Virus record (IMG/VR): IMGVR_UViG_2912649904_000001 | Span: 1-64,000 of that record | DNA length: 64,000 nucleotides | Origin: a virus | Taxonomy: Duplodnaviria > Caudoviricetes | Strand: one strand, 5' to 3' | Shown: piece by piece, positions 7,982 through 28,542 of the stretch | Layout of the letters: each line of letters opens with the position of its first letter | How positions within the stretch are numbered: position 1 is the first letter of the stretch | Notes under the pieces: generated by a model | Seen by the model: the letters and a program-made list of their open reading frames with translations, nothing else | Database searches by the model: none | What the model was told of the DNA's origin: nothing | Translations under genes and position numbers: made by a program

Positions 7982-8016
7982 GCCCGGCCCACAACCAGCA
8001 GCGGCCACCCAGTCTA
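7982..8016 (-). promoter_or_regulatory. Late-gene leader motif with TAGACT -10
   Basis: GCCCGGCCCACAACCAGC at 7982-7999 (+ strand), agtcta at 8011-8016. Confidence 0.7.
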
Positions 8017-8052
8017 CGGCTGGCCCGCCGCCACCCGGCCGGTGTCCCACAA

Positions 8053-8150
8053 CTGTCCGGGACGGTGTCCGGACACCTCCCGCCGGGCAGTCCGAGGCAG
8101 CGCCCTGACCTGCCCGGACAGCGTCCGGACACCGCTACTGGCAGTGTCCG
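8053..8150. repeat. Cluster of TGTCCGG / CCGGACA repeats
   Basis: Several gtccgg and ccggac units in both orientations in an intergenic gap. Confidence 0.65.
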
Positions 8151-8151
8151 G

Positions 8152-8874
8152 TCAGCCGTAGAGTTCGACGATCACGATGCCGTCCGCTCCGGATGTCCCA
8201 GGGGACGTCTCGCCATCTCGCGCGAACGCTCCTGCCGCGCCGCCGCCGTAGCCGCGCGGGGCGCCGCCGCCGCCGTCCGAGGAGCGCGGAAAACCACCGT
8301 GGCCGAGGTGTGATTCGCCACCGTTGCCGGACTGGCCCTGGAACCCGGTGAGGCGGATAGCGCCGCCGGAGCCGCCTCCGCCGGTAGCCCAGTCCCCTGT
8401 GCCGGCCAGTGGCCCGGCGATACCCGAGAAGCACGCCGAGCCCGTACCGGACGCCATGCCCGTCGTGCCACCGCCGCCACCGTTCGAGGTGACGGTGCCA
8501 CCGAAGGCGCTGTTGCCGCCCGCTCCACCATCACTGTCCGTTCCGCCCGCGTTTCCACCCGCTCCGACGAGGACGGTCTCGATCGCGCCGAGCGCGGACA
8601 CGTCGATCAGAGCCTCCGCGTATCCGCCGCCTGCACCGCCGTTGCGCACCACGAGTTCGCCCTGAGCCGCCCGAGCCCCGGCAGAACCACCGCCAGCCGC
8701 TTGCACGCGCACACGGATCCGAGCCAGCCAGGGGTAGTCAGCAGCCTGGAACTGGAAGGTCCCGGGCTCCTTGAAGTACAGGACTTGCCGCAGACCCATC
8801 GTGCCCGGGTTGAGGCACAGTTCGCCCTCATCGTTGACGTTGAAGTACGTGCTGCACACACAAACACTGGCCAT
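8152..8874 (-). CDS. Glycine-rich minor tail protein
   Basis: GGGGS / GGAGGGY repeats, GADGIVIVE terminus. Confidence 0.85.
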   Translation of the reverse strand: MASVCVCSTYFNVNDEGELCLNPGTMGLRQVLYFKEPGTFQFQAADYPWLARIRVRVQAAGGGSAGARAAQGELVVRNGGAGGGYAEALIDVSALGAIETVLVGAGGNAGGTDSDGGAGGNSAFGGTVTSNGGGGGTTGMASGTGSACFSGIAGPLAGTGDWATGGGGSGGAIRLTGFQGQSGNGGESHLGHGGFPRSSDGGGGAPRGYGGGAAGAFARDGETSPGTSGADGIVIVELYG

Positions 8875-8903
8875 CGGGACTCACCTCGTATGACGGAAGG
8901 TGA

Positions 8904-8940
8904 GCCCGGCCCACAACCAGCGGCTACGGCGCCCAGGGTA
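8904..8940 (-). promoter_or_regulatory. Late-gene leader motif with TACCCT -10
   Basis: Motif 8904-8924, agggta 8935-8940. Confidence 0.7.
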
Positions 8941-8944
8941 GTCG

Positions 8945-9397: not shown

Positions 9398-9403
9398 CGT
9401 GCC

Positions 9404-10465
9404 TCACACCCCTGCCATCATCGGCGTCGCGGTATCCGAACCTGTCGCCGCTACCTGCACTTGCACCTGTTCCGAGCCCGGCGTCGACTCGGTGCCGCCG
9501 TCCTCGGCCACCTTCAATCCCACAATTTTGAGGCGCTGAGAGATCGGACGGCACGTGACCTGAGTGGTGATGTCCAAGCACCAGCCGGGGACCAGAAGCG
9601 GCACCTCTACGGCCGCGTCTGGACTGATCGTCACGTCCTGCGTGTCGATGAACACCGGAACCGGCAGCGAGGACCGCAGCCGCGACTTCGCGGCTTCCGT
9701 CGCGGCGGCGTCCGTCGTGATCGTCGTCTGCTCTACGTACCGCTCCAGCAGCCCGTAGTACGGGTCCGCGCCGCCTGCCTCCCCAAGAACGTCGCCCTCG
9801 TCGTCTCCAGCTACGACCCATCGCGTACCCAGCGCGGTACCGTCCTCGGCCACGATCAGGCCCTCCGGCAGGTCTGCGTCGCTGAGACGGCCGACGCTCA
9901 CCGTGTGGTTCTCCGGCATGAGCACGATCCGCGAGCCGACCGCGGTGTAGTCGAGACCGGTCTCCGCGAGGTCCCGCAGATGATCGCCGGTCTGCCCCAC
10001 GTTCCTCAGGTACTTCCTGCCGCCGCGCACACCAGACCGCCCAAGGATCTGGATCTCGTGACCCGGATCGTCCGGGGCGAACCCGTCGGTGATCAGCCAC
10101 TCGGCGATGTCCGTGAGGTCCGAGCCGCCGAAGGTGATGTCCTGGTGCGGCACCCGCCGGTCCAGCCACGCCAACAGGTCCCCGGCCCAAATCTCGATCT
10201 TCCCCAGCGACCATTCCACCTGGAGGACCGGACCAGACCAGACCGGCACCCCGTCGCGCCAGATGTTCAGGTAGGAGCGCCAGGCCCGGACCTCGCCGAG
10301 GCGTTCACAGCAGTCCCCATCGGGCTGCACCACGACACGGGCCGTTGAGGTGTCGTCCAGGTTCCTGGTCCACTCCACCTCGGTGAGCGTGTGGACCGGG
10401 GTCAGCGTCGCCCCGCTCCGGTCAGTGATCAAGGCGGCATGAGTGCCGCACCCTGCGACGGCCAT
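9404..10465 (-). CDS. Minor tail (hub-like) protein
   Basis: Second gene after the tape measure; VEWTRNLDDTS, IWRDGVPVWSGPV. Confidence 0.8.
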   Translation of the reverse strand: MAVAGCGTHAALITDRSGATLTPVHTLTEVEWTRNLDDTSTARVVVQPDGDCCERLGEVRAWRSYLNIWRDGVPVWSGPVLQVEWSLGKIEIWAGDLLAWLDRRVPHQDITFGGSDLTDIAEWLITDGFAPDDPGHEIQILGRSGVRGGRKYLRNVGQTGDHLRDLAETGLDYTAVGSRIVLMPENHTVSVGRLSDADLPEGLIVAEDGTALGTRWVVAGDDEGDVLGEAGGADPYYGLLERYVEQTTITTDAAATEAAKSRLRSSLPVPVFIDTQDVTISPDAAVEVPLLVPGWCLDITTQVTCRPISQRLKIVGLKVAEDGGTESTPGSEQVQVQVAATGSDTATPMMAGV

Positions 10466-10493
10466 AGGGCACCCCCGGCGTGAGGAAAGAGGT

Positions 10494-10526
10494 GCCCGGC
10501 CCACAACCAGCGACCCGCTCAGGGTA
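10494..10526 (-). promoter_or_regulatory. Late-gene leader motif with TACCCT -10
   Basis: Motif 10494-10511, agggta 10521-10526. Confidence 0.7.
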
Positions 10527-10535
10527 CGACGGTGG

Positions 10536-11966: not shown

Positions 11967-11967
11967 A

Positions 11968-14900
11968 TCAGATCACTCCCGCCGCGAGGGCCAGCCTGGA
12001 CGCGACGCGGTGCGCAGTCGCCCGCGCGTCGCCCGCCTCGTAGATGTGGAATACCGCGCCCGGGCCGCCAGGCAGCGGCGGCGGCTTCTCCTTGCTGCGG
12101 CTGCTGTCGCGGCCGTTCATCGCGCCAAGCATGTCCATCAGCCCCGACTTCTCCGCAAGATGCTGCGCGCGGCGGGGCTTCGTCAGCGGGATGATCACCT
12201 CGGGCCCGGCTTCGCCGACGAGCCCGACGACAGGGCTGTTGACGATGCCGCCCTCCGCGAAGGGCAGCACCTTCCGCACCGCGCCCGGCAAGCCGCCCTT
12301 GATCTTCGACACGATCCGGCTCCCGATGTTGCCCAGCGAGGCAACGATCTTTCCAGGCAGCGACGAGAACAGGTCCACGATCGCCGAGATCAGTGAGGAC
12401 ACCGCCGAGCGGGCGGAGCCCGTCGCCGACCGGAACACCCCAGCAATCCGGTCCCCGAGGCCGGACAGCGCAGACACGATCCGGCCCGGCAGGGTGGAGA
12501 AGAACGTGGCGACCGACGAACCAAACGTGTGGGCAGCCGCGAGGCCGGAGGAGCCAGCAGACCGGAACAGAGAACTGACCCGTCCGGGCAGTGCGGCCAG
12601 CGCGGACCCGATCCGGCCGGGGAGCGCCGCGAAGAACGACACCGCCGACGAGACGAACAAGCTGATCGCCGACCGGGCAGCGGACACACCACGGGAGAAG
12701 GCGCCGCCGATCGCCGACCCAAGCGACGCGAGCGCGGCGACGATCTTCCCCGGTAGCACCGTGAACAGGGCGATGATCCCCGCCAGCGCGGTCAGCAGAG
12801 CGATACCCAGCAAGGCGACCGCGTTCACGAACAAGTCGACGAGCAGGCCGGGTAGCGCCACCAGCGCGGCGATGATGCGGCCGGGCAGCGCGGTGAAGAA
12901 GCCCACCACTGCGGTGAAAGCGCTTGTGATGCCCGTGACGATCGTGGTGACCAGCGTCGTGAACGTGGTCGTGATCAGCGACCCCAGCGCCGACAAGCCG
13001 GACACGATCAGTGTCGGCAGTTGCGTGATGAACGTGACGAGGTTCGACAGGCTGGAGATCAAGAACGTCAGGACGTTCACGACCCCGGTGATGATCGGAA
13101 CGACGACGTTGATCGCGGCCCACGACAGGAACGCGGCAGCTACCTGGAGGACGGGGCCGAGGAGCCGCACAACGAGAACAACCAGCGGCGCCAGCGCCTC
13201 GACTAACTGCGCGACGGACGGCAGCAGCGGCACCAGCGCCAGCAGGATCGCGTTGAACGCCTCCACGATCGGTGGGAGCACCGGCAGCAGCGCGTTCGCC
13301 AACGCGGTGTACACCGGCACCAGCGCGCTCGCGATGCGAACCAGGACCCCGGCCAGGGTTTTAAGCACGGGGGCGAGGGACTGGAAGACCTGAGCGACGG
13401 CCTGCCCTGCACCGGCCGCGAGCGGCGCCATGGCCTGCACGAGCATCGAGAACGCCTGACCGATCTGCGGCAGGACCGGCAGCAGCGCCCCGACGAGCGC
13501 CTGAATGATCGGCTGGAACAGGCTGACGAGGTTCTGGAGAACCGGCGCGAGGGCCTGCCCGATGACGGCGACGATCTGCCCGACGAGCGGCAGCAGAGGC
13601 GCGAGCGCGGACACCGCGCCGCCGATCGCGGCGCCGAGCGGCGCAAGGGAGGGGCCGATGATGCCGAGCCCTTGGGCAAGGGCCTGGCCGACGGCCGCCA
13701 GCGACGGCGCGATGGCCGCCAGGGCGGGCCCGAGCGCGTTGATCAGTCCGGTCAGGGCGGGCCCGACTGCGGTGAAGATGGGGGCCAGGGCAGGGGCGAT
13801 GGCGCCGAGCTGCGTCACCAGCGCGCTGAGGATCGGGCCGAGCTGCGCCGCGATCGTGCCGATGGTGCGGAAGATGTTCCCGATGGCCTCTTGGCCCTGG
13901 GCGGAGTTGACGAACTCTCGGAAGCTCGCGGTGATCGTCTGAATGTTGTTCAGCAGTCCGCCGCCCGCGCCGTCGGCGGCTCGGAACACCCCCGCGAGGA
14001 TGCTGCCGACGTTCGAGGCGATGGCGCCGAGCTGCTGGAAGACGGCGACCGCGCCGCGCACCCAGGCTACGGCCTGCCCACCCTCGGCGATGCGGGTCAG
14101 GAACTCGCCGAACCGTACCGCGAGCCCGCCGACCGCCTGTCCGAGCTGCGTGCCGAATGCCTGCGAGACGGCGGCGGCGACGTCCAAGAAGCCCTGGGCG
14201 AGCGGCCGTGTTCCCTGGGCGAGGGCGTCGACGGCGGACTTCGTGCCCGCGATCACGGTCTGGATCTGGGAGAACGCGGCCTGCGTCGACAGGAACCGCA
14301 GGCCCGCCGCTGCGGCACGGCCGAATCCGGCGGCGACATCCTCCAGGCCCTTGCTGAGGGGCAGCAGGTTCTTGATCGCTCCGCTGACCTGCGACGCGAA
14401 CTCCTCGAAGAACGCCTGCTGGACAGCCTGTTGAACCTCTTTGAGCTGCGGCGCCAGCTCCTTGACCGCCCCGACGGCTGTCCTCGCGGCCGGGGCCAGG
14501 CCCTCGATCGCCTCCGCGTACTTCGCGGCGTCCCCGGAGAACGCCGCCACCAGCGCGTCGCCGACACCAACGACCGCCAGGCGCAGGGCGCCGAGCGCGA
14601 TCTGCGCCCCGGCGATAGCCGCAGGGAACGCAGCGACGATCCCAGCCGCGGGGGCGAGCGCGGCGACCAGCGCCCCGATGGAGGAAGCCGCCCCGGCGGC
14701 GGCGATACCGACGGCTCCGAAGGCGAGGAGGCCGCTCAGCGCGCCGCCGACCCGGCCGGCGATACCGCCGAGCCTGCCCAGCGACCGGGACAACCGGTCG
14801 GTGTCGACGTTCGCGTTGACCGTGACGTCGGGCGGCCGGTGCTCCCGGATACGGGCGTCGAAGCCGTCCAGGTTCGGCACGACCCGTACGGGGATCGGGA

Positions 14901-15222
14901 CGCCGGCCAGGACGGCGCGGACCCGCGCGACGAACCCCGTCAGGTCGGGGACGACGGGGACGTTGATGCTGCCCAGGCTGCGGAGCCCGGTCAGCAGCGC
15001 CGAGTCGAACCGGCGCAGGTCCGGCTCTACTTGGACCGTGACGGCAGCGGCGTTCAGGCCGCGCTGGATGTTCCGCCGGATCTGGGCACCGATGTTGCGT
15101 GTGCCCCGGTCCAGGCTGTTCTGGATGCGGTTGGCGACCTGTCGCGAATCCGACGTCGTGTCGCCGTCGTCGAGGACGATTGTGATCCGTGCTGACCCGT
15201 AGTCGACGTCCTCGCCAGCCAC
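11968..15222 (-). CDS. Tape measure protein
   Basis: ~1084 aa Ala/Leu/Gly-rich helical repeats; C-terminal FAEGGIV..VGEAGPEVIIPL; GTG start after GGAGG. Confidence 0.92.
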   Translation of the reverse strand: MAGEDVDYGSARITIVLDDGDTTSDSRQVANRIQNSLDRGTRNIGAQIRRNIQRGLNAAAVTVQVEPDLRRFDSALLTGLRSLGSINVPVVPDLTGFVARVRAVLAGVPIPVRVVPNLDGFDARIREHRPPDVTVNANVDTDRLSRSLGRLGGIAGRVGGALSGLLAFGAVGIAAAGAASSIGALVAALAPAAGIVAAFPAAIAGAQIALGALRLAVVGVGDALVAAFSGDAAKYAEAIEGLAPAARTAVGAVKELAPQLKEVQQAVQQAFFEEFASQVSGAIKNLLPLSKGLEDVAAGFGRAAAAGLRFLSTQAAFSQIQTVIAGTKSAVDALAQGTRPLAQGFLDVAAAVSQAFGTQLGQAVGGLAVRFGEFLTRIAEGGQAVAWVRGAVAVFQQLGAIASNVGSILAGVFRAADGAGGGLLNNIQTITASFREFVNSAQGQEAIGNIFRTIGTIAAQLGPILSALVTQLGAIAPALAPIFTAVGPALTGLINALGPALAAIAPSLAAVGQALAQGLGIIGPSLAPLGAAIGGAVSALAPLLPLVGQIVAVIGQALAPVLQNLVSLFQPIIQALVGALLPVLPQIGQAFSMLVQAMAPLAAGAGQAVAQVFQSLAPVLKTLAGVLVRIASALVPVYTALANALLPVLPPIVEAFNAILLALVPLLPSVAQLVEALAPLVVLVVRLLGPVLQVAAAFLSWAAINVVVPIITGVVNVLTFLISSLSNLVTFITQLPTLIVSGLSALGSLITTTFTTLVTTIVTGITSAFTAVVGFFTALPGRIIAALVALPGLLVDLFVNAVALLGIALLTALAGIIALFTVLPGKIVAALASLGSAIGGAFSRGVSAARSAISLFVSSAVSFFAALPGRIGSALAALPGRVSSLFRSAGSSGLAAAHTFGSSVATFFSTLPGRIVSALSGLGDRIAGVFRSATGSARSAVSSLISAIVDLFSSLPGKIVASLGNIGSRIVSKIKGGLPGAVRKVLPFAEGGIVNSPVVGLVGEAGPEVIIPLTKPRRAQHLAEKSGLMDMLGAMNGRDSSRSKEKPPPLPGGPGAVFHIYEAGDARATAHRVASRLALAAGVI

Positions 15223-15250
15223 CGGGCAACCTCCGCAATTGCGTGTGGTT

Positions 15251-15320
15251 GCCCGGCCCAAAACCAGCGGCGACGCCTCCGGTCCCCGTGCCCAGGGTCC
15301 GGAGGCGTGACCCCAGGTTA
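15251..15320 (-). promoter_or_regulatory. Late-gene leader motif with inserted hairpin and TAACCT -10
   Basis: GCCCGGCCCAAAACCAGC 15251-15268; stem 15273-15308; aggtta 15315-15320. Confidence 0.65.
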
Positions 15321-15324
15321 GCCG

Positions 15325-15650
15325 CTACCTGCTACCGGTCATCCGAGCGTCCTCGGCCGCGAGTTGGGCGGCGAGAGCCTGCGCCCCAGCCCGGTCCAGC
15401 GCCGTGCCTGGCGGGCGCCCCCGGCGACGGCCTCGGCCGCGTTCGGACGCGGGCGGGGCGTAGAGCTTCGCCCGGTTTCGCTGCCGCTCGGCGTCGTCTT
15501 CCGCTGAGGCGTCCATCGCGGCCTCTGCGGCGTTGAGCATCGTCCTCAGCGTCCACGTGTGCGGGTCGACCCCTTGGAGGACGAGACCGCCCTCCCACGA
15601 GTCCCAGGAGGCGGCGACGCTGCCGCAGAGCCTCCAGACAGCCCAGTAGG
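15325..15650 (-). CDS. Tail assembly chaperone extension (probable -1 frameshift product)
   Basis: Overlaps the 3' end of 15546-16091 in the -1 frame, immediately before the tape measure. Confidence 0.6.
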
Positions 15651-16091
15651 GCGCTGGCCGCCCCCATACAGCTCGACAGCCCACTCCAGCAGCTCGACCA
15701 ACACCCGGTCCGGGAGTCGCATCCCCGAGTCGCGCACCGTGGAACCCTTGCTTTCGGCGGCGTGCGCGTCGGCCTCTTCGCGGGTGCCGAACGACTCGAC
15801 CGCCTTGCCGCCCTTGACGACCTCCCAGCGAGCGAACACCTGCGCCGACTCCGGGAGCATCAGCTTCGCGAGGAACACACGGAGGGACTGCACGATCGCC
15901 CGCAGCTTATCCGGGGCGATTCCGGACAAGTTGTTGATGTCGACGCCGAGCTGCTTCTGCGTCTGCTGCAAGTCCTCGTACGCGTCGAGGAACTGGTCGC
16001 CCATCACCTCGGGCTGGAACAGCAGCTCCACGTCGCCGATCTCGGCGACGTGCGGCTCGGTGTTGATCGTGAACTGGCGGCGCTGGCTCAT
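15546..16091 (-). CDS. Tail assembly chaperone
   Basis: Position; ends ..ELYGGGQRPT followed by a Ser/Gly-rich tail. Confidence 0.75.
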   Translation of the reverse strand: MSQRRQFTINTEPHVAEIGDVELLFQPEVMGDQFLDAYEDLQQTQKQLGVDINNLSGIAPDKLRAIVQSLRVFLAKLMLPESAQVFARWEVVKGGKAVESFGTREEADAHAAESKGSTVRDSGMRLPDRVLVELLEWAVELYGGGQRPTGLSGGSAAASPPPGTRGRAVSSSKGSTRTRGR

Positions 16092-16122: not shown

Positions 16123-16158
16123 GCCCGGCCCACAACCAGCGGCGCGGACCGAAGGGTA
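16123..16158 (-). promoter_or_regulatory. Late-gene leader motif with TACCCT -10
   Basis: Motif 16123-16143, agggta 16153-16158. Confidence 0.7.
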
Positions 16159-16228: not shown

Positions 16229-16951
16229 ATGGGGAAAGCTCAGCAGGCATGGGGCGGGCTGAATGCTCGTCAGCGCATCTACATGGAGGTCATGTACGGC
16301 GAGGACCAAGGACTGGAGGAGGAGCAGCGGCAGCTCGGCACTCAAGGGCGGTTCACCAAGGCCCCCGCGCAGGTGTGGCGGCGGATCTTCCTCTCCGGGC
16401 GGGATGCGCCCACCCCGAGAGCGTTGCGGGCGCGCGGGTTGTGGGAGTCGGGCGCCGGGTCAACCCTGGCCGCGCTCGCCGACCGGGGGCTGATCGAGCT
16501 GGGCACCACCGACACCGGCGCCCCGTACGCGCTTCTCACCCGGGCCGGCCGCGCCGCCACGCGTGCCGGGCTGGGTATCGCTCCGATGCCCAGCAAAGCT
16601 CCGTGGGAGCTGTCCGAGTGGCTCTGGCGCGAGATGGCCAAGGTCGCCAGGGCCGGGGAGGACGGCCTGCCGCCCGAGGAGCTGTTCGGGTCCGCGCACC
16701 TGTACCTCGTCACCGGATACGACAGACACCGGGGGAACCGGCCCTACTTGGACGTCCACGAGGAGAGCGTCACATACACGCCCCGGGACTTTAGCGGCAA
16801 CCTTCGCGCCGGCCACCAGGCGAGCCGCACCGTGCGCCGCTACCGGTTTACCGAAGCGGGGCGGGCGCACTACGTCGACCACGTCGAGGACTACCGCAAG
16901 TTCTACCCCGAGATCGAGGCACCCGACCTGGCCGTGGTCCCCCGCAGCTAG
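16229..16951 (+). CDS. Hypothetical protein, possibly two winged-helix segments
   Basis: GGGAGG RBS; LADRGLI..YALLTRAGR and YRFTEAGR motifs. Confidence 0.75.
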   Translation: MGKAQQAWGGLNARQRIYMEVMYGEDQGLEEEQRQLGTQGRFTKAPAQVWRRIFLSGRDAPTPRALRARGLWESGAGSTLAALADRGLIELGTTDTGAPYALLTRAGRAATRAGLGIAPMPSKAPWELSEWLWREMAKVARAGEDGLPPEELFGSAHLYLVTGYDRHRGNRPYLDVHEESVTYTPRDFSGNLRAGHQASRTVRRYRFTEAGRAHYVDHVEDYRKFYPEIEAPDLAVVPRS

Positions 16952-17045
16952 CGGCCGTGGTGAGTTTCGCGAATCGGCCACGGCGACCGCGCTCCGCAAG
17001 GAAACTTCCCTGGTCAAGAACTTGTCGGTAGATCAGGAGATTGCG

Positions 17046-17891: not shown

Positions 17892-17900
17892 CGGGTCTGG

Positions 17901-18425: not shown

Positions 18426-18604
18426 GGCCGTCAACCTATGGTCTCGAAGGCTCCTTTGTCTCCCCGCATCCCCCTGTGGCCCGGGTAGTTGGGGTAGGGC
18501 GCCAAGGCGCCCTACCTGAGGGCCCCGGCTCTGGCATCTTGCCTCTCGGCGTGGATCGGGCATGACAAGCTCGTACGAAGCGACACCGATGATGAGGGGG
18601 ACAT

Positions 18605-19087: not shown

Positions 19088-19103
19088 CTCGGGGGAGCTT
19101 GAG

Positions 19104-19742
19104 GTGCAGCCGTTCAAGTTCCAGCATGGGACGGACGCTTGGAAGGCCGACAGCGTCCTGCATGTCTACGGGATCGTCGATCTCGTCGACCCTCGCCACG
19201 AGCCTTTGATCACCCTCTTGACCAAGGCGACCGAGGTCCTGCTCGACGCGGGTTTCCCGGTATGCCCGGTGGAGCCGCAGTGGCTCCACATCACGCTCGA
19301 TCAACTGTCAGGCCGCCCCGCATCGGCCGTGCCCCAAGAGGAACGAGAGGCCTTGGTCGAAGCCCTGAACCGGCGCCTGTCCGACGTCGCGCCGCTCGAC
19401 GTCGTCGTGGGGTCCATGCTGGCGTACCACTCCGGCGTGATCGGGGACTTGCATCCCGATGAGGAGATCGCTGCTCTGCACACCGCAGTGCGCAGCACTA
19501 TCCGGAGCGTCTGCGGGGAAGCCGCCACCCGATACCTCTGGGGAGTGCAACACCTGACGGCGGCCTACGCCTACGACCACGCCGACTCCGACGCGGCTCA
19601 GCGTCTGCTGCGACGCGTCCGGCCGAGCCACGCTCACCTGCACATCTCCGCTGTCCACCTGGTGGACGTCACCGCGACGACCACCGAGCAGTCGAAAACC
19701 ATTACCTGGGAACACCTAGCTGAGATCCCGCTCGGTGGATAA
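19104..19742 (+). CDS. 2H phosphoesterase (2'-5' RNA ligase-like)
   Basis: Two HxT motifs: WLHITL and QHLTAAY. Confidence 0.85.
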   Translation: MQPFKFQHGTDAWKADSVLHVYGIVDLVDPRHEPLITLLTKATEVLLDAGFPVCPVEPQWLHITLDQLSGRPASAVPQEEREALVEALNRRLSDVAPLDVVVGSMLAYHSGVIGDLHPDEEIAALHTAVRSTIRSVCGEAATRYLWGVQHLTAAYAYDHADSDAAQRLLRRVRPSHAHLHISAVHLVDVTATTTEQSKTITWEHLAEIPLGG

Positions 19743-22276: not shown

Positions 22277-22283
22277 GGCCGGC

Positions 22284-22985
22284 TCAGGACGGAGAGGCGT
22301 CGCACAGGACCGGCGTGTACTCGCACACCGGCTCAGGCGGGGCCACGGTCGTTACGAATGTCCGCCGGTGGCACGCCCCTCCGAGTGGCGTGAGCAGCGG
22401 CCCGGGCGTGCCGGCCGCGTCGATCGGCATGATGTCGTACGGGCCAGTTCCCCAGCCGCCCCCGGCCCGCGTGGCACCGTTCAGGACGAGGGACACGGCC
22501 TCGTTGCCAACCTCCAGGTCTCCGAGCTGACCGTTGGTTACCCACGGCATCAGGAAGTAGATCCAGGCGCCGTCACCGGCCGCGTCCGGATCGCACACAT
22601 CCTCGCCGAGGACTTCGGCCCACAGCTCCAGCGCGAAGCCCGAGTTGCACTGGACCGAGCAGTCGTCGTAGCCGATCGGCTTCCCGTCGTAGCCGTACAC
22701 CACGGGGTTGCCCGTCGTGATCTCCACGAACTCGGGGCTGACGGAGAAGAAGTTCAGCTCGATGTCGTAGCCGTTGAACGTGGGGCAGCCGCGCTTGAAT
22801 CCGCACTGGCGGCCGTTCGCCGCGGTGTACGCGACGTCTTCGCCTTCCTCGACGTTCGCGTTCATCGAGAGGGTGGCGAAGCAGTCGAAGGTGAAGCCGT
22901 TGTCTTCGCCGCAGACGGGTCGACCGCATCGGTCCACGCGGGTCACACGGATCACGTCCGCGTTAGCGATCAAGGGGCAGGGCAT
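22284..22985 (-). CDS. Major tail (tube) protein
   Basis: IRVTRVDRCGRP, GFALELW, YFLMPWV; GGAGG RBS. Confidence 0.75.
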   Translation of the reverse strand: MPCPLIANADVIRVTRVDRCGRPVCGEDNGFTFDCFATLSMNANVEEGEDVAYTAANGRQCGFKRGCPTFNGYDIELNFFSVSPEFVEITTGNPVVYGYDGKPIGYDDCSVQCNSGFALELWAEVLGEDVCDPDAAGDGAWIYFLMPWVTNGQLGDLEVGNEAVSLVLNGATRAGGGWGTGPYDIMPIDAAGTPGPLLTPLGGACHRRTFVTTVAPPEPVCEYTPVLCDASPS

Positions 22986-23009
22986 CCCGGGCCTCCAACA
23001 CACGTGTCG

Positions 23010-23045
23010 GCCCGGCCCACAACCAGCGGCTACACCAGAAGTGTA
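23010..23045 (-). promoter_or_regulatory. Late-gene leader motif with TACACT -10
   Basis: Motif 23010-23030, agtgta 23040-23045. Confidence 0.7.
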
Positions 23046-23133
23046 TCCGCGCGCACTCCGCATCGGACGACGCCGGAAGGACGGGGTTACCGACCGGTTC
23101 GCCTCGGACCGGGCAGCGTTGTGGTCGAGGACG

Positions 23134-25143
23134 TCAACGGGCGCAGGTGGTGCTCAAAATGTCGCGCACGGCGTCCATCCAGACAGCCATTTCTGTACGG
23201 GACTCCGCGGCAAGGGCCCTGCTCCGGGCGCGCGCTGCGGCGCTAGCCTGCGCGCGCTGGCTGCCGTCCGGATATAGCTCGCGGATTGCGTCCGCCCACA
23301 GGGCCGTGTCGGCACGGTCGATGAACCGCGCCGCGTCCCCGAGGGCTTCACGGAGCCCGGGGGTGGGGTGGGCGATGACGGGGATTCCGGACGCAAGGGC
23401 CTCCACTGCGGCCATGCCGAAACTCTCGTAGATGCTCGGCACGAGCAGGACGCGGGTGCGGGCCCAGACGTCGCGCCGCATGTCGGACGTCTGCGGGATG
23501 ATCCGCGTGTTTCTCCGTACGGGGCGGAGGACTTGCGGACCGTGGGCGCCGGTCACTCCCAGAAACGGCAGATGAGGCAGCGCCCGGGCGGCGGCACGCC
23601 AGGTGTCCACGCCCTTGTCCCTGTTCAGGTTGACGAGCGCCACATGATCACCGGCCCGGTGCGTGCGGTGCTCTGCGGGCACAACAGGGGGGTGTACGAC
23701 GAGAGAGCGCACGCGGTCGATCTGCGGGTACCGGGCAGTGAGGGACGCCTGCACCCAATGCGTGTTGTAGACGCACAAGTCAGGGCCAGCCAGCAGGGGT
23801 TCAGCGACCAGGTCGAAGTCGCTGTGGGCGAGGAGCACTGACCGGGAGCCGATGTCGCGGGCCAGGTGGACCGCGCGGGTCGCGTAGTCGTGGTGGGAGA
23901 CGACCAGGTGCGGGCGAGCCGAGCGGATGAACGCTTCAGCGGTCTGCGCACCGACGCTGGCGTACGGCACCCCATCCGTGTGCCACGAGGGGGGCGCCTC
24001 GGGCATCGCCGAGCACAGCACCCGTACGGGCACACCGGCGTCGTGGAGTGTCCGCATCATCGTGTGCAGCATCGTCTCCGATCCGGCCCGCCGGTACGGC
24101 ACGCCGAAGTGCACCCACGCCACAACGTCCGGCTGTCTGGGCGTCGTACTCGCGGGTGCCGGACGTGCGGGTGCCGCCGTGGAGTGCCGGACCGCTGTTG
24201 TGGACCGCTTCGCGGGCTGCTGGAGGAGACGGCGGCAGGCCCGTTCGAACGCGGCCAGGCGGGCGGCTGGGTCGAGGTCGTTGGTGTGTTCGCGGGCGCG
24301 CGCTGCGGCGGCGGTGTAGGCGTCGGGCGCGTCGAGACGCTGGATCTCCTCCGCCCAGCGGCTGGTGTCGTCGCGGTCGACGTAGGTGGCCGCGGTGCCG
24401 AGCGCTTCGCGGATACCGGGGAGGGGCGCAGCGATGACCGGGATGCCCGACAGCATTGCTTCGACGCCGACTCGGCCCCATGACTCTGTCTGCGACGGCA
24501 TCAGCAGCAGCCGCGTTCGGGCGTAGAGCGAGCGGGGGTCCGTACGGTCGATGACGTTGACGTTGTCCGGGAGCAGTACTCCCTCGTGCCAGGGGGTGCG
24601 CACGGCGAGGAACTGCCGGTCGGGCATCCGCTCGGCGACCGCAGCGACGACGTCGGCACCCTTCGCCGCGGTTGTGCCGTTGACCGTGATGAGGCGGCCG
24701 GGCTGGGTGCGGTACCGGGCCGGAGTGATCGGAGGCGGCAGTACGAGCGGCCGGACACCGATGTCGGGGTAGTGGTCGCGGCAGGCTTGTGAGGGGAACC
24801 AGGCCGTCGACGGCCTGCCGAGGTCGCGGTCGTCCGACAGGCCGTGCACCATCAGCAGGTGCGGTACGCCCGGCGTTTGGGCGACGATCCGTGCGCCCCT
24901 TCGGTCCCCGTGGTGGGAGATAAGCACCTGCGGGGCTGATACTCGTGCGGCATGCCGCCACCGCCGCAGAGGCCATACCCGTACTCCGGCCTCGGTGTAA
25001 GGCTCCCAGTTGTCCTTCGACGTGGTCACCACGTCCACGATGTGACCGGCGGCGGCGAGTCCGAGTGCGTACTCGCGGGTGGTGATGAACGCGCCTGCGG
25101 CCGGTAGCGGGCTCCAGGAGGGCAGGAGTACCAGCACCCGCAT
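23134..25143 (-). CDS. Tandem two-domain GT4 glycosyltransferase
   Basis: Two EX7E motifs: ESWGRVGVEAMLSGIPVI and ESFGMAAVEALASGIPVI. Confidence 0.9.
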   Translation of the reverse strand: MRVLVLLPSWSPLPAAGAFITTREYALGLAAAGHIVDVVTTSKDNWEPYTEAGVRVWPLRRWRHAARVSAPQVLISHHGDRRGARIVAQTPGVPHLLMVHGLSDDRDLGRPSTAWFPSQACRDHYPDIGVRPLVLPPPITPARYRTQPGRLITVNGTTAAKGADVVAAVAERMPDRQFLAVRTPWHEGVLLPDNVNVIDRTDPRSLYARTRLLLMPSQTESWGRVGVEAMLSGIPVIAAPLPGIREALGTAATYVDRDDTSRWAEEIQRLDAPDAYTAAAARAREHTNDLDPAARLAAFERACRRLLQQPAKRSTTAVRHSTAAPARPAPASTTPRQPDVVAWVHFGVPYRRAGSETMLHTMMRTLHDAGVPVRVLCSAMPEAPPSWHTDGVPYASVGAQTAEAFIRSARPHLVVSHHDYATRAVHLARDIGSRSVLLAHSDFDLVAEPLLAGPDLCVYNTHWVQASLTARYPQIDRVRSLVVHPPVVPAEHRTHRAGDHVALVNLNRDKGVDTWRAAARALPHLPFLGVTGAHGPQVLRPVRRNTRIIPQTSDMRRDVWARTRVLLVPSIYESFGMAAVEALASGIPVIAHPTPGLREALGDAARFIDRADTALWADAIRELYPDGSQRAQASAAARARSRALAAESRTEMAVWMDAVRDILSTTCAR

Positions 25144-25343
25144 GCGGTGGGTTCGGCGCCGCAGAGTCTGACGGTCGTTCATCACCTGTCCATTGGGGGG
25201 TGTACGGGGCCGTCTGCGGCCCGGCCCTCGGAAACCAGGCCGCAGACGGGGACAAGGGGCCGCTACGTCGTCGTGCTGTGGGTTGACGTCTGGGGCGGCG
25301 TACAGGATGCCGATCGCGCGACCGGAGCTACACGGGGTGGTGG

Positions 25344-25847: not shown

Positions 25848-25862
25848 CTCGGCAAGCTCTCC

Positions 25863-26726
25863 TCAGCGGATCTGGACGTTGACCGCGCACACGGTGCACG
25901 TCGTACCGACGACGAAGGTGCGCTCGATCAGCACGCGGCGGTCGTTCGTGCGGATGTTCACGGACGGGCCGGGCCGGTCGGGGGTAGTCACGGACGGGCC
26001 GCGGCGGATGACGAGCGGGCCGGTGATGTAGAGCCAAGCCGTACCTGGGTCGGCGGGGGTTCCGCCGGGCCCGGTGTTCTCCGCCGAGTAACCGGCGCCG
26101 ATCACCACGCAGTTGCCAGCCAGCGTGCTCAGTGCGCCCGTCGCCGGGTTCTCAAGCGCGAGGTCGCAACAGCCGAGCAAGGCGGCGGCCGAGGCCGGGA
26201 TGTGGATGACGCCGACACCGCCGTACGACTCCGCGAGGCAGCCCTCCAGCGCGGCGACGCCCTGAGAGACGGTCAGCGGCCCGCCGTCGGGTGTGAGGTC
26301 GATGGCGTAGCGGGTCAGCTTCCTCCGCCAGAACGCGGCCTCAAGCGCCTTCTGTTCACCGAGGGCAAGAGTCGCTTCGGCGTGTTCGCGGGCCTCTTCG
26401 TACGACCAGCCGATCGTCGAGCACTCGGCACCCGCGTACAGCGTGATCGGCTCGGCGTACTCGGTCTCGGGGCGGCAGAACTGCTTGGAGCCCGGAGACT
26501 CGTCCCCCGGCGATTCATCGCCTGGTGACTCGTCTCCTGGCGACTCGTCCAGGCACGGGTCCGTCCAGGACCGGACGGGGCAGCAGCCGAGCGCCAGCCA
26601 CTCGACCCCGAGCAGCTCGTGCTCGTCAGCGACGTCACGCACGTCCGTACACGGGGTGGTGAGGATGCCGTGTGGCAAGGGCGTCCCGTCGATCGCTTCG
26701 ACCTGCTTCCGCAGTCCTGCGGCCAC
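25863..26726 (-). CDS. Second capsid protein (pentamer-type), with (DESPG)4 insert
   Basis: Follows the major capsid; LEGCLAESYGGVGVIH, TND..VLIERT; AAGGAG RBS. Confidence 0.7.
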   Translation of the reverse strand: MAAGLRKQVEAIDGTPLPHGILTTPCTDVRDVADEHELLGVEWLALGCCPVRSWTDPCLDESPGDESPGDESPGDESPGSKQFCRPETEYAEPITLYAGAECSTIGWSYEEAREHAEATLALGEQKALEAAFWRRKLTRYAIDLTPDGGPLTVSQGVAALEGCLAESYGGVGVIHIPASAAALLGCCDLALENPATGALSTLAGNCVVIGAGYSAENTGPGGTPADPGTAWLYITGPLVIRRGPSVTTPDRPGPSVNIRTNDRRVLIERTFVVGTTCTVCAVNVQIR

Positions 26727-26749
26727 GTGCTCAGCTCCTTCGGTATGGG

Positions 26750-26787
26750 GCGGTGGGCCGGCGCCACCCGAAGCACCGGCCCACCGC
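26750..26787 (-). terminator. Strong hairpin between the two capsid genes
   Basis: GCGGTGGGCCGG..CCGGCCCACCGC inverted repeat. Confidence 0.6.
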
Positions 26788-26804
26788 GGTCTGGGTGCTG
26801 GACG

Positions 26805-28439
26805 TCAGGAGGCGTCGCAGACCATGAGCGACTGTGCTCCGGTCTCACCGGTCGGGCAGACGGGCACGGTGACGGCGCGGGTGTCCACTGAGCGATCCAC
26901 GAGGGCGACGCATTCCTCTGCGAAAAGTGCGGTGTAGTCGTTCGTGGAGAACTTCGTGCTGTCGTGGACGACGCCGAGGTTGACCTCTTCGCCACGGCCG
27001 ATCTGGAGCTGACCGGAGGGGTACATGAGGAACGTGACCTCGTCCGGCCATTCCACAGCGGCGGCCGGCCCGCCGATGTCGGCGGGGACGGCCGGGGTGA
27101 GGCCGCGGGCCCACTGCACCATCACGCCGAGCGGCGTGAACATGTCCTGCACCATCTGCGGATCGACCTGATCGGTCGTCACGCCGTTGCGGCGTGCGAG
27201 GTCGGCCAGGAAGAGGTTCCGGGACCACCACGGGAACACGACCTCGATGGCCGTGCTCTCGCACAGGCTGTGACGCTCGATCATGTCGGCGGCCTGGAGG
27301 GCGACCGCTGCGTACACGGCGGACAGGGCGCCCATCGTCGGCGGGAGGGCGACGGGCGTTGCGCCGGCGAGCGCCTGCTGGAACAGGGCCTGCCTGATCC
27401 TGATCTCGTGCGCGACCATGGTGTTCCTGAGGTACCAGGCGACCAGCTCCGGGAAGTGGCGCTGCGTCAGGATGCCCGCCTCAAGGCACACGCCGACGGC
27501 GTCACATCGGACCTCGACCGGGTCCGGGCAAGGGATCTTGAAGCAGGGCTTCGTCGCGCCGGAGATGTCGTCGGCTTCAGTGTGGATCCACGTCATCGAG
27601 GCGACGTCGAGGCTCGGGGTCTTGTAGTAGCGCAGTCCACCACGGGCGAGCTGGATCTCGGGGGCGTCCCACAGCATGTCAGGGCACGCCACATCGAGCA
27701 GGTCGTAAACCGTCTCGGAGGGCGCGCACCAGCCGCCGGACGCGATGAGGTCCTGCTGCGGCAGTCGCCGCTGGTTCGCCGCCTGGATGGCCACGGTGGT
27801 GCCCTCCGGCGCGCTGCTGGAGTCCGTGACGATCAAGTCGTGGGTGTACGGGTGCCGGTAGGAGATGACCTGCCCGACGCCTCCACCGGCGGTCTTGAGC
27901 GCGTTGGCGCGAGAGATGATCCCGGCGGTGATGTCGCCGAAGTCGAGCGCGGCGCCCGGAGTGTAGCCGGGCACGTCGACCGCCGCGGTGATGCTGGTGG
28001 TCGGCGCGGGGGGTTCGGGCAGTACGCGCGGCTGGCGGCGCCGCACACCGGACAGGTTCAGGGCCGGCCGCTGCGCGATGGCGGCGCTGACCGTCTTCAC
28101 CTGCTCCGGCTCGGGCTCCGGCTCGGCCGCCGCGGTGGCGGTGTCGTCGGCGGGCTCCTCGTCGGCGGGCTCCTCGGGCTGAGCATCGCCGCCCCTCACC
28201 TGCGCGGCGAGCGAGTCGATCTCCGCAGCGGCCTTCTCGGCCGCCTTTCGGCGTGCGGCCTGCTCGGTGCGGATACCGTCGACCGTCGTGGCGAGGGACC
28301 GAAGGGACTCAAGGTCCTTGGTCGTGACGCTGGTGGACTGCGACTTGGCGTCGAACGCTGCCACGGCGCCCTCAAGCGCTTCGTTCAGCTCGTCGTCCGA
28401 CAGTGCGGTGACGTCTTCGGGGATCTCGAACTCAGCCAT
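26805..28439 (-). CDS. Major capsid protein (hexamer-type, N-terminal scaffold-like region)
   Basis: ASGGWCAPSETVYD motif, acidic coiled-coil N-terminus, TNDYTALFAEE. Confidence 0.88.
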   Translation of the reverse strand: MAEFEIPEDVTALSDDELNEALEGAVAAFDAKSQSTSVTTKDLESLRSLATTVDGIRTEQAARRKAAEKAAAEIDSLAAQVRGGDAQPEEPADEEPADDTATAAAEPEPEPEQVKTVSAAIAQRPALNLSGVRRRQPRVLPEPPAPTTSITAAVDVPGYTPGAALDFGDITAGIISRANALKTAGGGVGQVISYRHPYTHDLIVTDSSSAPEGTTVAIQAANQRRLPQQDLIASGGWCAPSETVYDLLDVACPDMLWDAPEIQLARGGLRYYKTPSLDVASMTWIHTEADDISGATKPCFKIPCPDPVEVRCDAVGVCLEAGILTQRHFPELVAWYLRNTMVAHEIRIRQALFQQALAGATPVALPPTMGALSAVYAAVALQAADMIERHSLCESTAIEVVFPWWSRNLFLADLARRNGVTTDQVDPQMVQDMFTPLGVMVQWARGLTPAVPADIGGPAAAVEWPDEVTFLMYPSGQLQIGRGEEVNLGVVHDSTKFSTNDYTALFAEECVALVDRSVDTRAVTVPVCPTGETGAQSLMVCDAS

Positions 28440-28472
28440 GAAAGCCGGGCCTCCGGTGTCGCTTCGTGGAGT

Positions 28473-28542
28473 GCCCGGCCCAGAACCAGCGGCTTTGCGG
28501 GGCGGCCCGGCAATGGCCGGACGGCCGCCCCGCATCAGTTTA
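28473..28542 (-). promoter_or_regulatory. Late-gene leader motif with inserted hairpin and TAAACT -10
   Basis: GCCCGGCCCAGAACCAGC 28473-28490; stem 28496-28534; agttta 28537-28542. Confidence 0.65.

Follow-up and report, generated by a model that had tools for sequence, protein, structure and literature searches.

A repeat present in seven copies lies ahead of the virion genes of a Streptomyces prophage, and very probably acts as a functional RNA hairpin in the leaders of these late genes. From its sequence in many relatives, the repeat is best read as the conserved core of an RNA hairpin with bulges, 21 nt in length (5'-NNN G C U GGUU NWG GGCC G NNN-3'). Late-gene control in actinobacteriophages is poorly understood, and the leader hairpin is a concrete, testable handle on it. 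A single small hairpin precedes the genes for the capsid, tail tube, tape measure and tail-fibre-like protein and the gene at the chaperone position. The control element is apparently undescribed so far: keyword and motif-string searches of a limited literature collection returned unrelated papers only. A paper on the Samy prophage deals with a PhiC31-like phage and is not relevant to the leader hairpin (PMC11302927).

Copies of the repeat in the prophage

The window, that is, the whole analysed stretch of 64,000 nucleotides, was searched with the pattern GCTGGTTNTGGGCCGGGC, allowing up to two mismatches. Seven matches were found, each of them without a mismatch and on the minus strand, at 7982, 8904, 10494, 15251, 16123, 23010 and 28473, the same seven copies and coordinates as in an earlier sequence-only reading. 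In 100 shuffles, the mean number of matches was 0.06 and the maximum was 2, and 7 were reached in 0/100. The motif's variable base is G in five copies, T in one and C in one. The prophage's own genome (7,894,562 bases, ~7.9 Mb) contained 16 matches at up to two mismatches; the exact ones were the seven in the window, with no others. The remaining nine had two mismatches each and are at chance level, as a reversed control pattern yielded 27. When the own genome was searched with model R1, the best match beyond the leader copies scored 18.3 bits. The motif core was absent from the reverse strand in the window and in the 26 other sources searched.

The gene labels given earlier (capsid, tail tube, chaperone, tape measure and tail genes) fit the family matches or gene positions (Table 1), and the distance to the structural-gene start, put at ~30 nt, is 24-33 nt between the motif end and the start codon. 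The 181-aa protein belongs to a family with no named function, and the gene at the matching position in phage TurkishDelight is annotated as a chaperone. The 332-aa protein after hairpin 7 had no family match in the domain and PHROG scans.

Table 1. Leader hairpins and associated features of the window (bits, model R1).
Feature	Position	Strand	Context	Basis
Hairpin 1	28473..28493	-	before major capsid gene, ORF 26805-28439	R1 36.5 bits; phrog_777 major head protein
Extra GC-rich hairpin	28497..28533	-	between -10-like box and hairpin 1	sequence and fold
-10-like box TAAACT of capsid unit	28537..28542	-	GGC before it	predicted
Hairpin 2	23010..23030	-	before major tail protein gene, 22284-22985	R1 38.5 bits; phrog_792
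-10-like box TACACT	23040-23045	-	hairpin 2 unit	predicted
Hairpin 3	16123..16143	-	before 181-aa gene at chaperone position, 15546-16091	R1 37.7 bits; phrog_12617
-10-like box TACCCT	16153-16158	-	hairpin 3 unit	predicted
Hairpin 4	15251..15271	-	before tape measure gene, 11968-15222, GTG start	R1 38.5 bits; tape-measure PHROGs
Extra hairpin	15273..15308	-	between -10-like TAACCT (15315-15320) and hairpin 4	sequence and fold
Hairpin 5	10494..10514	-	before minor tail protein gene, 9404-10465	R1 33.7 bits; phrog_837
-10-like box TACCCT	10521-10526	-	hairpin 5 unit	predicted
Hairpin 6	8904..8924	-	before Gly-rich tail-fibre-like gene, 8152-8874	R1 36.8 bits; phrog_863, PF21722
-10-like box TACCCT	8935-8940	-	hairpin 6 unit	predicted
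Hairpin 7	7982..8002	-	before 332-aa gene, 6954-7952, TTG start	R1 37.2 bits; gene without family match
-10-like box TAGACT	8011-8016	-	hairpin 7 unit	predicted
Variable leader part, capsid example	28437..28472	-	GGAG 28451-28454, ATG 28437-28439	predicted

RNA fold and covariation

In the predicted fold, the motif's last three bases pair with the three that precede it, G1 and U3 are bulged, and the further pairs are C2 with G15 and GGUU with GGCC; the loop is NWG, or one of 5-7 nt with G-U pairs closing it. RNAalifold, run on 22 capsid leaders, recovered the bulged hairpin and showed compensatory changes in 4/8 pairs. In the main set of 74 copies (66 distinct) from 26 related phages and prophages, 98.9% of the cells pair, compared with 92.0 +/- 0.5 in shuffles (0/500 as high), and 32 double-change cells were counted, compared with 4.7 in shuffles (0/500). 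When the partners were slid out of register in this set, pairing fell to 20-61%. The C2:G15 pair is C-G in 60 copies and A-U in 6 of this set. A cross-genus set of 34 copies (29 distinct) from Streptomyces, cluster BG and Gordonia gave a similar picture, with 97.0% of the cells pairing, compared with 90.2 in shuffles (0/500); here, C2:G15 is C-G in 25, A-U in 3 and G-C in 1, and the two U-G pairs are replaced by C-G in 13 and 5 copies. The covariance analysis across relatives that had been proposed with the sequence-only reading thus yielded a hairpin fold with double changes above the shuffles. The fold originally drawn, CUGGUU-NUG-GGCCGG, holds for its inner four pairs and fails for its two outer pairs: the outer register showed no covariation and its pairs are broken in 13 and 6 of the 66 distinct copies.

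In the Streptomyces phages, the bulged G, the bulged U, the loop G and the two G-U pairs are fixed, and the flanking pairs covary. The fixed, unpaired G1, U3 and loop G10, together with the conserved G-U pairs, suggest that a partner recognises the hairpin. The G-U pairs are functional only as sense-strand RNA, since the other strand would carry A-C mismatches. These data bear on whether the repeat is a DNA site, either an operator or a stoperator-like repressor roadblock, or a late-activator site just downstream of the late promoters. It is an asymmetric, one-orientation repeat beside promoter-like boxes, as stoperators are, and the late promoters of a prophage must stay silent. A DNA site is nonetheless highly improbable, as the compensatory changes preserve an RNA fold with bulges and G-U pairs, the flanks covary instead of being conserved, and the copies are confined to late leaders and tied to the start codon. 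The original proposal of an RNA-level 5'-leader element, rather than a fixed-spacing DNA site, is supported by the covariation including the G-U pairs, by strict orientation, and by a distance that is tight to the start codon and loose to the promoter box.

An Rfam search, also proposed earlier, produced no family matching the leader hairpin. With Rfam 15 at gathering scores, only a tRNA was reported in the whole window. Eight weak matches were listed in 7800-28700 at E values up to 10, all far below the gathering scores, and the eight include no family of leader hairpins of this kind. By chance, two of them overlap the extra hairpin of the capsid leader or hairpin 1.

Spread among related phages

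The gene strand holds all 74 copies and the opposite strand 0, and copies were present in 26/27 sources, with seven to nine per phage. TurkishDelight has nine forward and no reverse copies, all at 12.9-30.6 kb in a genome of 93.6 kb. For TurkishDelight gene 33, the start is annotated at 30557, within one of the hairpin copies (30551-30567), and the real start probably lies further downstream; the hairpin can thus correct start-site annotation. Among Streptomyces and Gordonia phages, temperate as well as lytic ones carry the hairpin. The Gordonia and cluster BG phages retain the fold, the cluster BG form being a variant. Seven isolated hits were fetched from other genomes and the core pattern was present in six and absent in the seventh (L062). 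Of the six, four lie ahead of the same leaders and genes in related or remnant form, one is upstream of an amidase-like gene and one is at a contig end. Neither Kwadwo nor Zemanar, both cluster B mycobacteriophages, had a convincing hairpin; a loose likeness was present in the capsid leader only.

Spacing and promoter-like boxes

A promoter-like box precedes the hairpin in 70/72 distinct upstream regions. Each late unit appears, from these sequences, to start at a promoter with only a -10 box, (CGGC)TAnn(C/A)T. We infer the promoter and its transcription start from a match to this consensus, and on the best reading each late unit would have the hairpin at its 5' end or a few bases from it. Such a promoter-plus-leader unit could serve as a compact Streptomyces expression cassette. 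Simple scans found 0 sigma-70-type -35/-10 promoters, and 5 T-tailed terminators, compared with 5.3 expected. TTGACA was present only before capsid units, in 11/72 distinct upstream regions. In eight capsid upstream regions it lies 22-29 nt from the -10-like box (counted by eye), a spacing beyond that of a standard promoter, and it was rejected as a -35 box.

Five copies (7982, 8904, 10494, 16123 and 23010) have a TAnnCT hexamer 9-13 nt ahead of the motif, and in the capsid and tape-measure copies a GC-rich hairpin of 36-37 nt separates the two; the hexamer spacing and the insertion of a long hairpin had been noted from the sequence at the outset. At the place of the extra capsid hairpin, the relatives L031-L034 and L048 have a hairpin of different sequence. 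In the window, the gap between box and hairpin is 6-10 nt, or 43 nt with the extra hairpin inserted. Across the relatives, the -10 box is 6-13 nt from the hairpin in 53/70 leaders and 17-59 nt in 17/70, the latter including the second copies of tandem pairs. The motif end lies 21-33 nt from the start codon in 67/69 leaders.

These distances could be read as those of a 5'-terminal stabiliser or processing element, in which the hairpin blocks 5'-end-dependent RNases or marks a processing site, its sequence is conserved to suit promoter escape and local folding, and no dedicated factor is needed. With its base 6-13 nt after the -10-like box in those 53 leaders, the hairpin would have its first base between about +1 and +6; an additional strong hairpin is present at the same end of the capsid and tape-measure leaders, and the genes downstream require high output. 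A stabiliser needs only a stem, however, whereas the bulges, the loop G and the two G-U pairs are fixed in the Streptomyces phages; in 17/70 leaders the hairpin is 17-59 nt from the box, and it is the start-codon distance that is kept. We therefore regard this explanation as rather doubtful.

The boxes ahead of the hairpins also fit a promoter-proximal antitermination RNA that modifies the polymerase to read through hairpin terminators of the late units. A terminator-like strong hairpin follows the capsid gene (26727-26804), and the host polymerase as the partner would account for conservation across host genera. Antitermination is unlikely all the same: the distance to the start codon is kept and that to the promoter is not, Rfam gave no match, no N-like family was found among 70 ORFs of the window, and the hairpin is a single 21-nt stem, compared with a two-stem put RNA of about 70 nt.

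Competing helix at the ribosome-binding region

Constrained folds of 67 leaders, with shuffles, were used to examine the remainder of the leader. In these folds, the variable leader part and the 3' half of the hairpin can pair with the Shine-Dalgarno region and the pre-start bases. This competing helix is predicted to be more stable than the hairpin state in 61/67 leaders, by a mean of 6.7 kcal/mol. By prediction, opening the ribosome-binding site costs 16.5 kcal/mol with the helix and 8.1 kcal/mol with the hairpin, and the cost is higher with the helix in 62/67 leaders. The leaders were more structured than the shuffles (mean z -1.47, Wilcoxon p 7e-9). The 12 variable nucleotides after the motif pair with their own pre-start sequence at -9.0 kcal/mol, compared with -7.0 kcal/mol when swapped (0/5000 permutations). 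The downstream partner follows the last three bases of the hairpin (GGC with GCC, GGU with ACC and GAC with GUC), and such partial covariation with the pre-start sequence is something that antitermination does not require.

The pre-start regions of 90 other genes, used as a control, also complement GGGCCGGGC well, at -9.9 kcal/mol, compared with -11.2 kcal/mol (p 0.006). In the 23 leaders with a last triplet other than GGC, the own triplet was better than GGC in 10, with 3 ties. The Shine-Dalgarno core is predicted to be paired in both states (0.73 versus 0.76). Among 20 leader sites of Gordonia, cluster BG and Microbacterium, 19 folded heterogeneously without a consistent helix, and one was without a fold. 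The modelled helix between the 3' half of the hairpin and the ribosome-binding region is thus weakly supported, and may be specific to this lineage, given the inconsistent folds in the other three groups.

The hairpin could also be the operator of a translational repressor, a virion or late protein that binds it and shuts down its own regulon once its product suffices. Whatever speaks for a bound factor also speaks for this explanation, and only structural genes are controlled. We consider it quite improbable, as the hairpin does not contain the start codon, its end being 21-33 nt ahead of that codon and at or outside the edge of a ribosome footprint, and a stabilised hairpin is predicted to loosen, not close, the ribosome-binding site.

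Proposed mechanism and candidate factor

Our tentative proposal, which we rate as a serious possibility and somewhat short of probable, is that a factor-bound leader hairpin controls the translation and stability of the late messages. The hairpin would be the docking site for a putative trans-acting factor, a phage or host protein, that coordinates virion-gene expression post-transcriptionally. Free leader RNA would relax into a closed form, with the 3' half of the hairpin on the Shine-Dalgarno and pre-start sequence, and this longer helix would roughly double the predicted cost of opening the ribosome-binding site. The bound, stabilised hairpin would leave the site accessible and shield the 5' end. 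That the factor exists, that the helix is a working state of the leader and in which direction control runs are what we infer. If a factor does bind the hairpin, it would be a master switch of virion production.

No candidate RNA-binding protein, and no Com-, CsrA- or N-like family, was identified among the 70 window ORFs scanned with Pfam and PHROG. A conserved small Cys-x-Cys protein is encoded just upstream of the capsid leader and is a positional candidate only. Its AlphaFold model has a mean pLDDT of 69, and Foldseek gave no match in the PDB at E <= 0.001; the model and the structure search are no evidence for any role. A bolder version of the proposal, which we think unlikely, is that the hairpin is the operator of a late RNA regulon, in which a protein of the capsid-tail module reads the bulged G and U and activates all virion messages. 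The small Cys-x-Cys protein would be one candidate for that protein. If this were true, late control in this large actinophage lineage would be largely post-transcriptional, a many-target counterpart of Mu Com.

Comparison with known systems

Com of phage Mu is a zinc-finger protein that binds a hairpin upstream in the mom leader, where a competing helix hides the ribosome-binding site, and activates translation. The leader described here is similar in having a small hairpin upstream of a ribosome-binding site that a predicted competing helix could lock; here too, a partner bound to the hairpin would shift the RNA towards its open form. It differs in the number of target genes (one in Mu, seven in this prophage), in the lack of a Com-like family among the 70 window ORFs, and in that the helix is moderately supported here.

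The lambda nut site combines a boxB hairpin with a GNRA-like pentaloop, boxA and an arginine-rich protein of the N type, and the HK022 put RNA, with two stems in about 70 nt, acts on RNA polymerase without a protein factor. As in both, a short conserved hairpin would be transcribed soon after the promoter and act in cis on downstream genes. Unlike nut, the leader hairpin has a loop of NWG or 5-7 nt, no boxA- or boxB-like Rfam match, no conserved boxA-like flank in A2, and no N-like Pfam or PHROG hit in the 70 ORFs. Its conserved part is a single bulged stem, present in seven to nine copies per phage and spaced from the start codon rather than from the promoter.

The RNase III sites of T7 are long irregular duplexes within one polycistronic RNA. 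They resemble the present element in being about ten conserved intergenic hairpins before genes, some of which affect the stability and translation of the flanking messages, whereas the leader hairpin is 21 nt long and follows its own promoter-like box. The coat protein of RNA phages and RegA and gp32 of T4 are translational repressors, and the operator of the MS2/PP7 type is a bulged hairpin containing the start codon of the repressed gene; the leader hairpin ends 21-33 nt before it.

Stoperators are double-stranded DNA sites for a phage repressor, found across the genome including early and late regions. Like the present repeat, they are many-copy asymmetric sites in short intergenic gaps, oriented with transcription. 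The leader hairpin differs in its RNA-type covariation with G-U pairs and in its restriction to virion-gene leaders.

Cluster K mycobacteriophages, described in a paper that also mentions the stoperators of cluster A mycobacteriophages, carry the SAS, a 13-bp sequence (GGGATAGGAGCCC) located 3-7 bp before the start of non-structural genes only (PMC3203893). The SAS covers the ribosome-binding site, and the authors of that paper suspected a role in translation through a factor; for the associated ESAS repeats, they found no support for RNA pairing (PMC3203893). On that description, SAS and ESAS share with the leader hairpin a repeated, asymmetric, one-orientation motif before many actinophage genes, whereas the leader hairpin has another sequence, lies 21-33 nt upstream, precedes virion genes and shows RNA covariation (PMC3203893).

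Motif copies and gene context in the prophage

A search of the window with GCTGGTTNTGGGCCGGGC, allowing up to two mismatches, returned seven matches, all exact and all on the minus strand, against a mean of 0.06 and a maximum of 2 in 100 dinucleotide shuffles. The window corresponds to positions 2726193-2790192 of a single 7,894,562-base contig comprising the whole genome, and the exact copies found across these 7,894,562 bases were only the seven of the window. Nine other genome matches, each with two mismatches, were attributed to chance, as a reversed control pattern yielded 27. The sequence-only reading had located the seven copies correctly, and its observation was confirmed in all details. 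The copies lie about 30 nt before structural-gene starts, as it had described (24-33 nt from motif end to start codon in all seven); a TAnnCT hexamer is present 9-13 nt 5' of the motif in five; and the inserted hairpin of the capsid and tape-measure copies is a GC-rich stretch of 36-37 nt between hexamer and motif.

Our own gene calls, with PHROG and Pfam scans, showed the window to be a prophage with its virion genes on the minus strand. The lysis genes come after the 332-aa gene in this order.

Features of the window, in virion gene order, followed by other features
Feature	Position	Strand	Basis
Small terminase	38521-39147	-	gene calls, PHROG/Pfam
Large terminase	36941-38524	-	gene calls, PHROG/Pfam
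Portal	32831-34567	-	gene calls, PHROG/Pfam
MuF-protease fusion	28814-32602	-	gene calls, PHROG/Pfam
Major capsid, motif copy in front	26805-28439	-	gene calls, PHROG/Pfam
Glycosyltransferase	23134-25185	-	gene calls, PHROG/Pfam
Major tail protein, motif copy in front	22284-22985	-	gene calls, PHROG/Pfam
181-aa gene in chaperone position, motif copy in front	15546-16091	-	gene calls, PHROG/Pfam
Tape measure, motif copy in front	11968-15222	-	gene calls, PHROG/Pfam
Minor tail genes (between tape measure and Gly-rich gene), motif copy before one		-	gene calls, PHROG/Pfam
Gly-rich fibre-like gene, motif copy in front	8152-8874	-	gene calls, PHROG/Pfam
332-aa gene, motif copy in front	6954-7952	-	gene calls
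Cys-x-Cys small protein	28590-28814	-
TTGACA region	28550-28586	-
Motif look-alike	25218-25244	-
Opposite-strand gene block	16229-19742	+
PF13563-like domain inside MuF-protease fusion	residues about 304-438 of 28814-32602	-
PF13563-like separate gene	19104-19742	+
tRNA-Gly(TCC)	41612-41686	-
Integrase-like ORF (weak, partial), adjoining the tRNA	41934-42395	-

The motif look-alike (CTGGTT, five other bases, GGGCCGGGC) is degenerate and forms part of a long, perfect hairpin that precedes the glycosyltransferase gene; it scored 11.9 bits in the covariance model of the leader hairpin and was left out of the copy count. The opposite-strand block splits the tail genes and looks like an inserted accessory cassette, encoding a 240-aa protein without known function, an endonuclease/exonuclease/phosphatase-family protein, a 131-aa ORF and a 2H-like protein. 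Two 2'-5' RNA ligase/2H phosphoesterase-like (PF13563) domains were present within the virion-gene region; in the Gordonia phages, a stand-alone gene directly before the capsid leader encodes the corresponding 'RNA ligase'. Phage/plasmid-type genes (ParB, methyltransferases, DUF3560, DUF6884) run on the minus strand up to the window end.

Related phages and host genomes

The sole similar phage by megablast was Streptomyces phage TurkishDelight (10% of the region covered, 77% identity). It carries nine motif copies, all forward and all within 12.9-30.6 kb of its 93.6 kb, in the matching syntenic gaps. The major tail and tape measure genes are each preceded by a tandem pair, and the capsid gene, the chaperone gene and three tail genes by one copy each. 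The annotated start of the TurkishDelight gene 33 (tailspike), at 30557, falls within the hairpin copy at 30551-30567, and the actual start codon probably lies some 30 nt further along. The capsid protein search matched 877 actinophage records, as well as 25 prophage loci in Streptomyces, Embleya, Micromonospora and Nonomuraea genomes. A search for the motif core, TGGTTNWGGGCC, covering these 25 loci together with the window and TurkishDelight found 74 copies in 26 of the 27 sources, every one on the gene strand. Streptomyces sp. NBC_01590 has a capsid locus with identical leader copies on both its chromosome and a 102-kb plasmid, and a relative of the prophage may therefore exist in plasmid-borne form.

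In the cluster BG Streptomyces phages TP1604, Xkcd426, phiSAJS1 and Mischief19, the copies preceding the capsid and major tail genes read GCTGGCGTTAGGCCGGGT and the one preceding the tape measure gene reads GCTGCGCGCTAGGCCGGGT, each lying 10-12 nt downstream of a TATCAT or TAGACT box. At many of the remaining late genes of the BG phages (loci L027-L030), a TAGACTGG or TAAGCTGG box is followed by a short leader that has no hairpin; the word GTGTCAA(G/C) is repeated upstream of several such boxes, at distances that vary. The form found in the Gordonia phages Clown and Bakery is GCTGGCC(TCG/GAG)GGCCGGGC, located in front of the capsid, major tail and tape measure genes, with an extra copy before lysin A in Clown, and Gordonia phage Clawz has GCTGGCTACGGGCCGGGT before its capsid gene. 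In Microbacterium phage Rasputia the base of the hairpin is kept around a large apical insertion. No convincing copy was found in the two cluster B mycobacteriophages examined.

A covariance model across relatives, a check suggested in the sequence-only reading, was built from 72 of the 74 copies, leaving out two plasmid copies from NBC_01590 identical to those of its chromosome. The seven window copies scored 33.7-38.5 bits, and the next best matches 13.5 bits in the window and 18.3 bits in its own genome. Among 150 other genomes sampled from the genus, 10 had matches at E <= 0.001. Three of these held clusters of seven, four and eight copies, on one strand and within 7-30 kb, and in each genome a capsid homologue of 81-86% identity immediately follows one match; no capsid homologue was found in the two single-copy genomes tested. 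Seven isolated matches were retrieved, and six contained the core pattern (locus L062 did not). Four of these six precede relatives or remnants of the major tail, chaperone-position or Gly-rich genes or of the tape-measure leader; of the other two, one lies before an amidase-like gene and one at a contig end. A broader model gave no matches in 150 class-wide genomes under strict filters, five of them from the prophage's genus. The covariance models revealed no use by host genes in the prophage's own genome or the sampled genomes. From this distribution, the element moves with one virion-gene module.

Hairpin fold and covariation

RNAalifold analysis of 22 capsid leaders returned a hairpin unlike that of the sequence-only reading. 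Motif bases 16-18 pair with the three bases 5' of the motif, G1 and U3 are bulged on either side of a C2:G15 pair, and G4, G5, U6 and U7 pair with C14, C13, G12 and G11 around a loop of N8, W9 and G10. When the structure was counted over the 74 copies (66 distinct rows), 98.9% of cells held standard pairs, compared to 92.0 +/- 0.5% in shuffles, and 32 cells had changed on both sides, compared to 4.7; none of the 500 shuffles reached either value. With the 3' partners slid by one to three columns, pairing was only 20-61%. The inner four pairs are uninformative in this count because the search pattern fixed them, and the outer four were free to vary. Compensatory changes were present in four of the eight pairs (outermost: G-C 47, A-U 11, U-A 4, G-U 2; second: C-G 59, U-A 4, U-G 2; third: C-G 47, U-G 9, U-A 6, A-U 1; C2:G15: C-G 60, A-U 6). 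The inner pairs of the original proposal were kept; its outer register (C2-G16, U3-G15) is without covariation and is broken in 13 and 6 of the 66 rows, respectively.

A cross-genus alignment of the Streptomyces, BG and Gordonia groups (34 copies, 29 distinct) gave 97.0% pairing cells compared to 90.2% in shuffles, a value reached by none of 500, and 15 double changes compared to 4.2. The C2:G15 pair was C-G in 25, A-U in three and G-C in one; the two U-G pairs were replaced by C-G in 13 and 5 rows, and six BG rows lacked pairing at the innermost position. The bulged G, the bulged U and two G-C pairs were kept in every group.

The survival of G-U pairs and bulges while the flanks covary would be expected of a functional RNA read from the sense strand, but not of a double-stranded DNA site bound by protein. 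A DNA site is accordingly a very improbable explanation, and the repeat very probably forms an RNA hairpin that is functional in late-message leaders. Judging from the covariation, the sequence-only reading of an RNA-level 5' leader element holds in its core, with the hairpin register corrected.

Promoter side

A TANNNT hexamer was found within 75 nt in 70 of 72 distinct upstream regions, with the consensus C(48) G(46) G(56) C(56) T A n n C(52)/A(16) T (counts of 70). No conserved -35 region was found in these 70 aligned regions, and a simple sigma-70 promoter scan gave no matches. The hexamer lies 6-13 nt from the hairpin base in 53 of the 70 (mode 9), and the remaining 17 have a longer gap of 17-59 nt. 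If transcription begins at the usual 6-8 nt after such a box, the hairpin is predicted to begin at about +1 to +6 of the transcript. Such a position would suit a factor-independent 5' stabiliser or processing signal, which we regard as unlikely, and also promoter-proximal antitermination of the nut or put kind, which seems less likely again.

TTGACA was present upstream of capsid units only, in 11 of the 72 regions (the window and relatives L031-L054). In eight regions counted by eye it lies 22-29 nt from the -10-like box, and the intervening stretch holds an inverted repeat whose sequence differs among relatives. This arrangement could serve to terminate the preceding unit, or it could be a promoter of unusual architecture.

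Start-codon side and a predicted competing helix

The distance from motif end to start codon was 21-33 nt (median 29) in 67 of 69 distinct leaders, the two exceptions being the first members of the TurkishDelight tandem pairs. As the box gap is loose and the start-codon gap tight, insertions are tolerated between promoter and hairpin and not between hairpin and ribosome-binding site, a pattern that suggests a hairpin function linked to the initiation of translation.

In most predicted folds, the 3' half of the hairpin and the bases following it pair with the Shine-Dalgarno and pre-start region. Two states were compared in 67 leaders by constrained folding, with the hairpin either forced or its 5' strand kept single-stranded. 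The competing-helix state was more stable in 61 (mean 6.7 kcal/mol), and the cost of opening the ribosome-binding site was 16.5 kcal/mol in this state compared to 8.1 kcal/mol in the hairpin state (higher in 62 of 67). Compared to sequences in which the variable part was shuffled, the leaders showed an excess of structure (mean z -1.47, Wilcoxon p 7e-9), and their Shine-Dalgarno core had a pairing probability of 0.76, against 0.62 in the shuffles. For the 12 variable bases after the motif, pairing with the pre-start region of the same leader was stronger than with pre-start regions taken from other leaders (-9.0 vs -7.0 kcal/mol; 0 of 5000 permutations), and the partner tracks bases 16-18 (GGC with GCC in 27 leaders, GGU with ACC, GAC with GUC).

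Other results count against the helix. Among 23 leaders with non-GGC triplets, the own triplet was better than GGC in only 10, with three ties; the Shine-Dalgarno core was paired in both predicted states (0.73 vs 0.76); and the Gordonia, BG and Microbacterium leaders gave heterogeneous folds at 19 of 20 sites, one giving no fold. The pre-start regions of 90 other genes complemented GGGCCGGGC nearly equally (-9.9 vs -11.2 kcal/mol, p 0.006). The competing helix is therefore treated as plausible in the Streptomyces group and not as established.

Possible mechanism and candidate factor

As to function, we tentatively favour a factor-bound leader hairpin. With the factor bound, the hairpin would leave the ribosome-binding site accessible and protect the 5' end, and the free RNA would relax into the closed helix. 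An alternative in which the hairpin is the operator of a repressor we consider improbable. No Com-, CsrA- or N-like family was found in Pfam and PHROG scans of 70 ORFs, and no candidate factor emerged from them. Directly upstream of the capsid leader lies a gene for a 75-aa protein beginning M-x-C-x-C, which is a candidate for the factor by position only. Its homologues occupy the same place in 18 of the aligned related loci, and also in TurkishDelight, cluster BG, Gordonia and Microbacterium phages and one cluster B mycobacteriophage. The protein had no Pfam or PHROG match, and its AlphaFold core, beta-beta-alpha-beta, returned no fold match.

Comparison with known systems

The existence of a cis-acting RNA element belonging to one actinophage virion-gene module is strongly supported. 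The Rfam search that had also been suggested matched no family; within the part of the literature searched, no paper containing the motif strings was found, and keywords returned nothing on such an element, which is apparently undescribed. The nearest described actinophage repeats are SAS and ESAS of Cluster K (PMC3203893) and the Cluster A stoperators. All three differ from the leader hairpin in sequence, position and gene class, and ESAS and the stoperators, unlike the hairpin, are without RNA covariation. Feature tests against known systems established membership of the element in none. The closest by working principle are Mu Com/mom, lambda nut and HK022 put.
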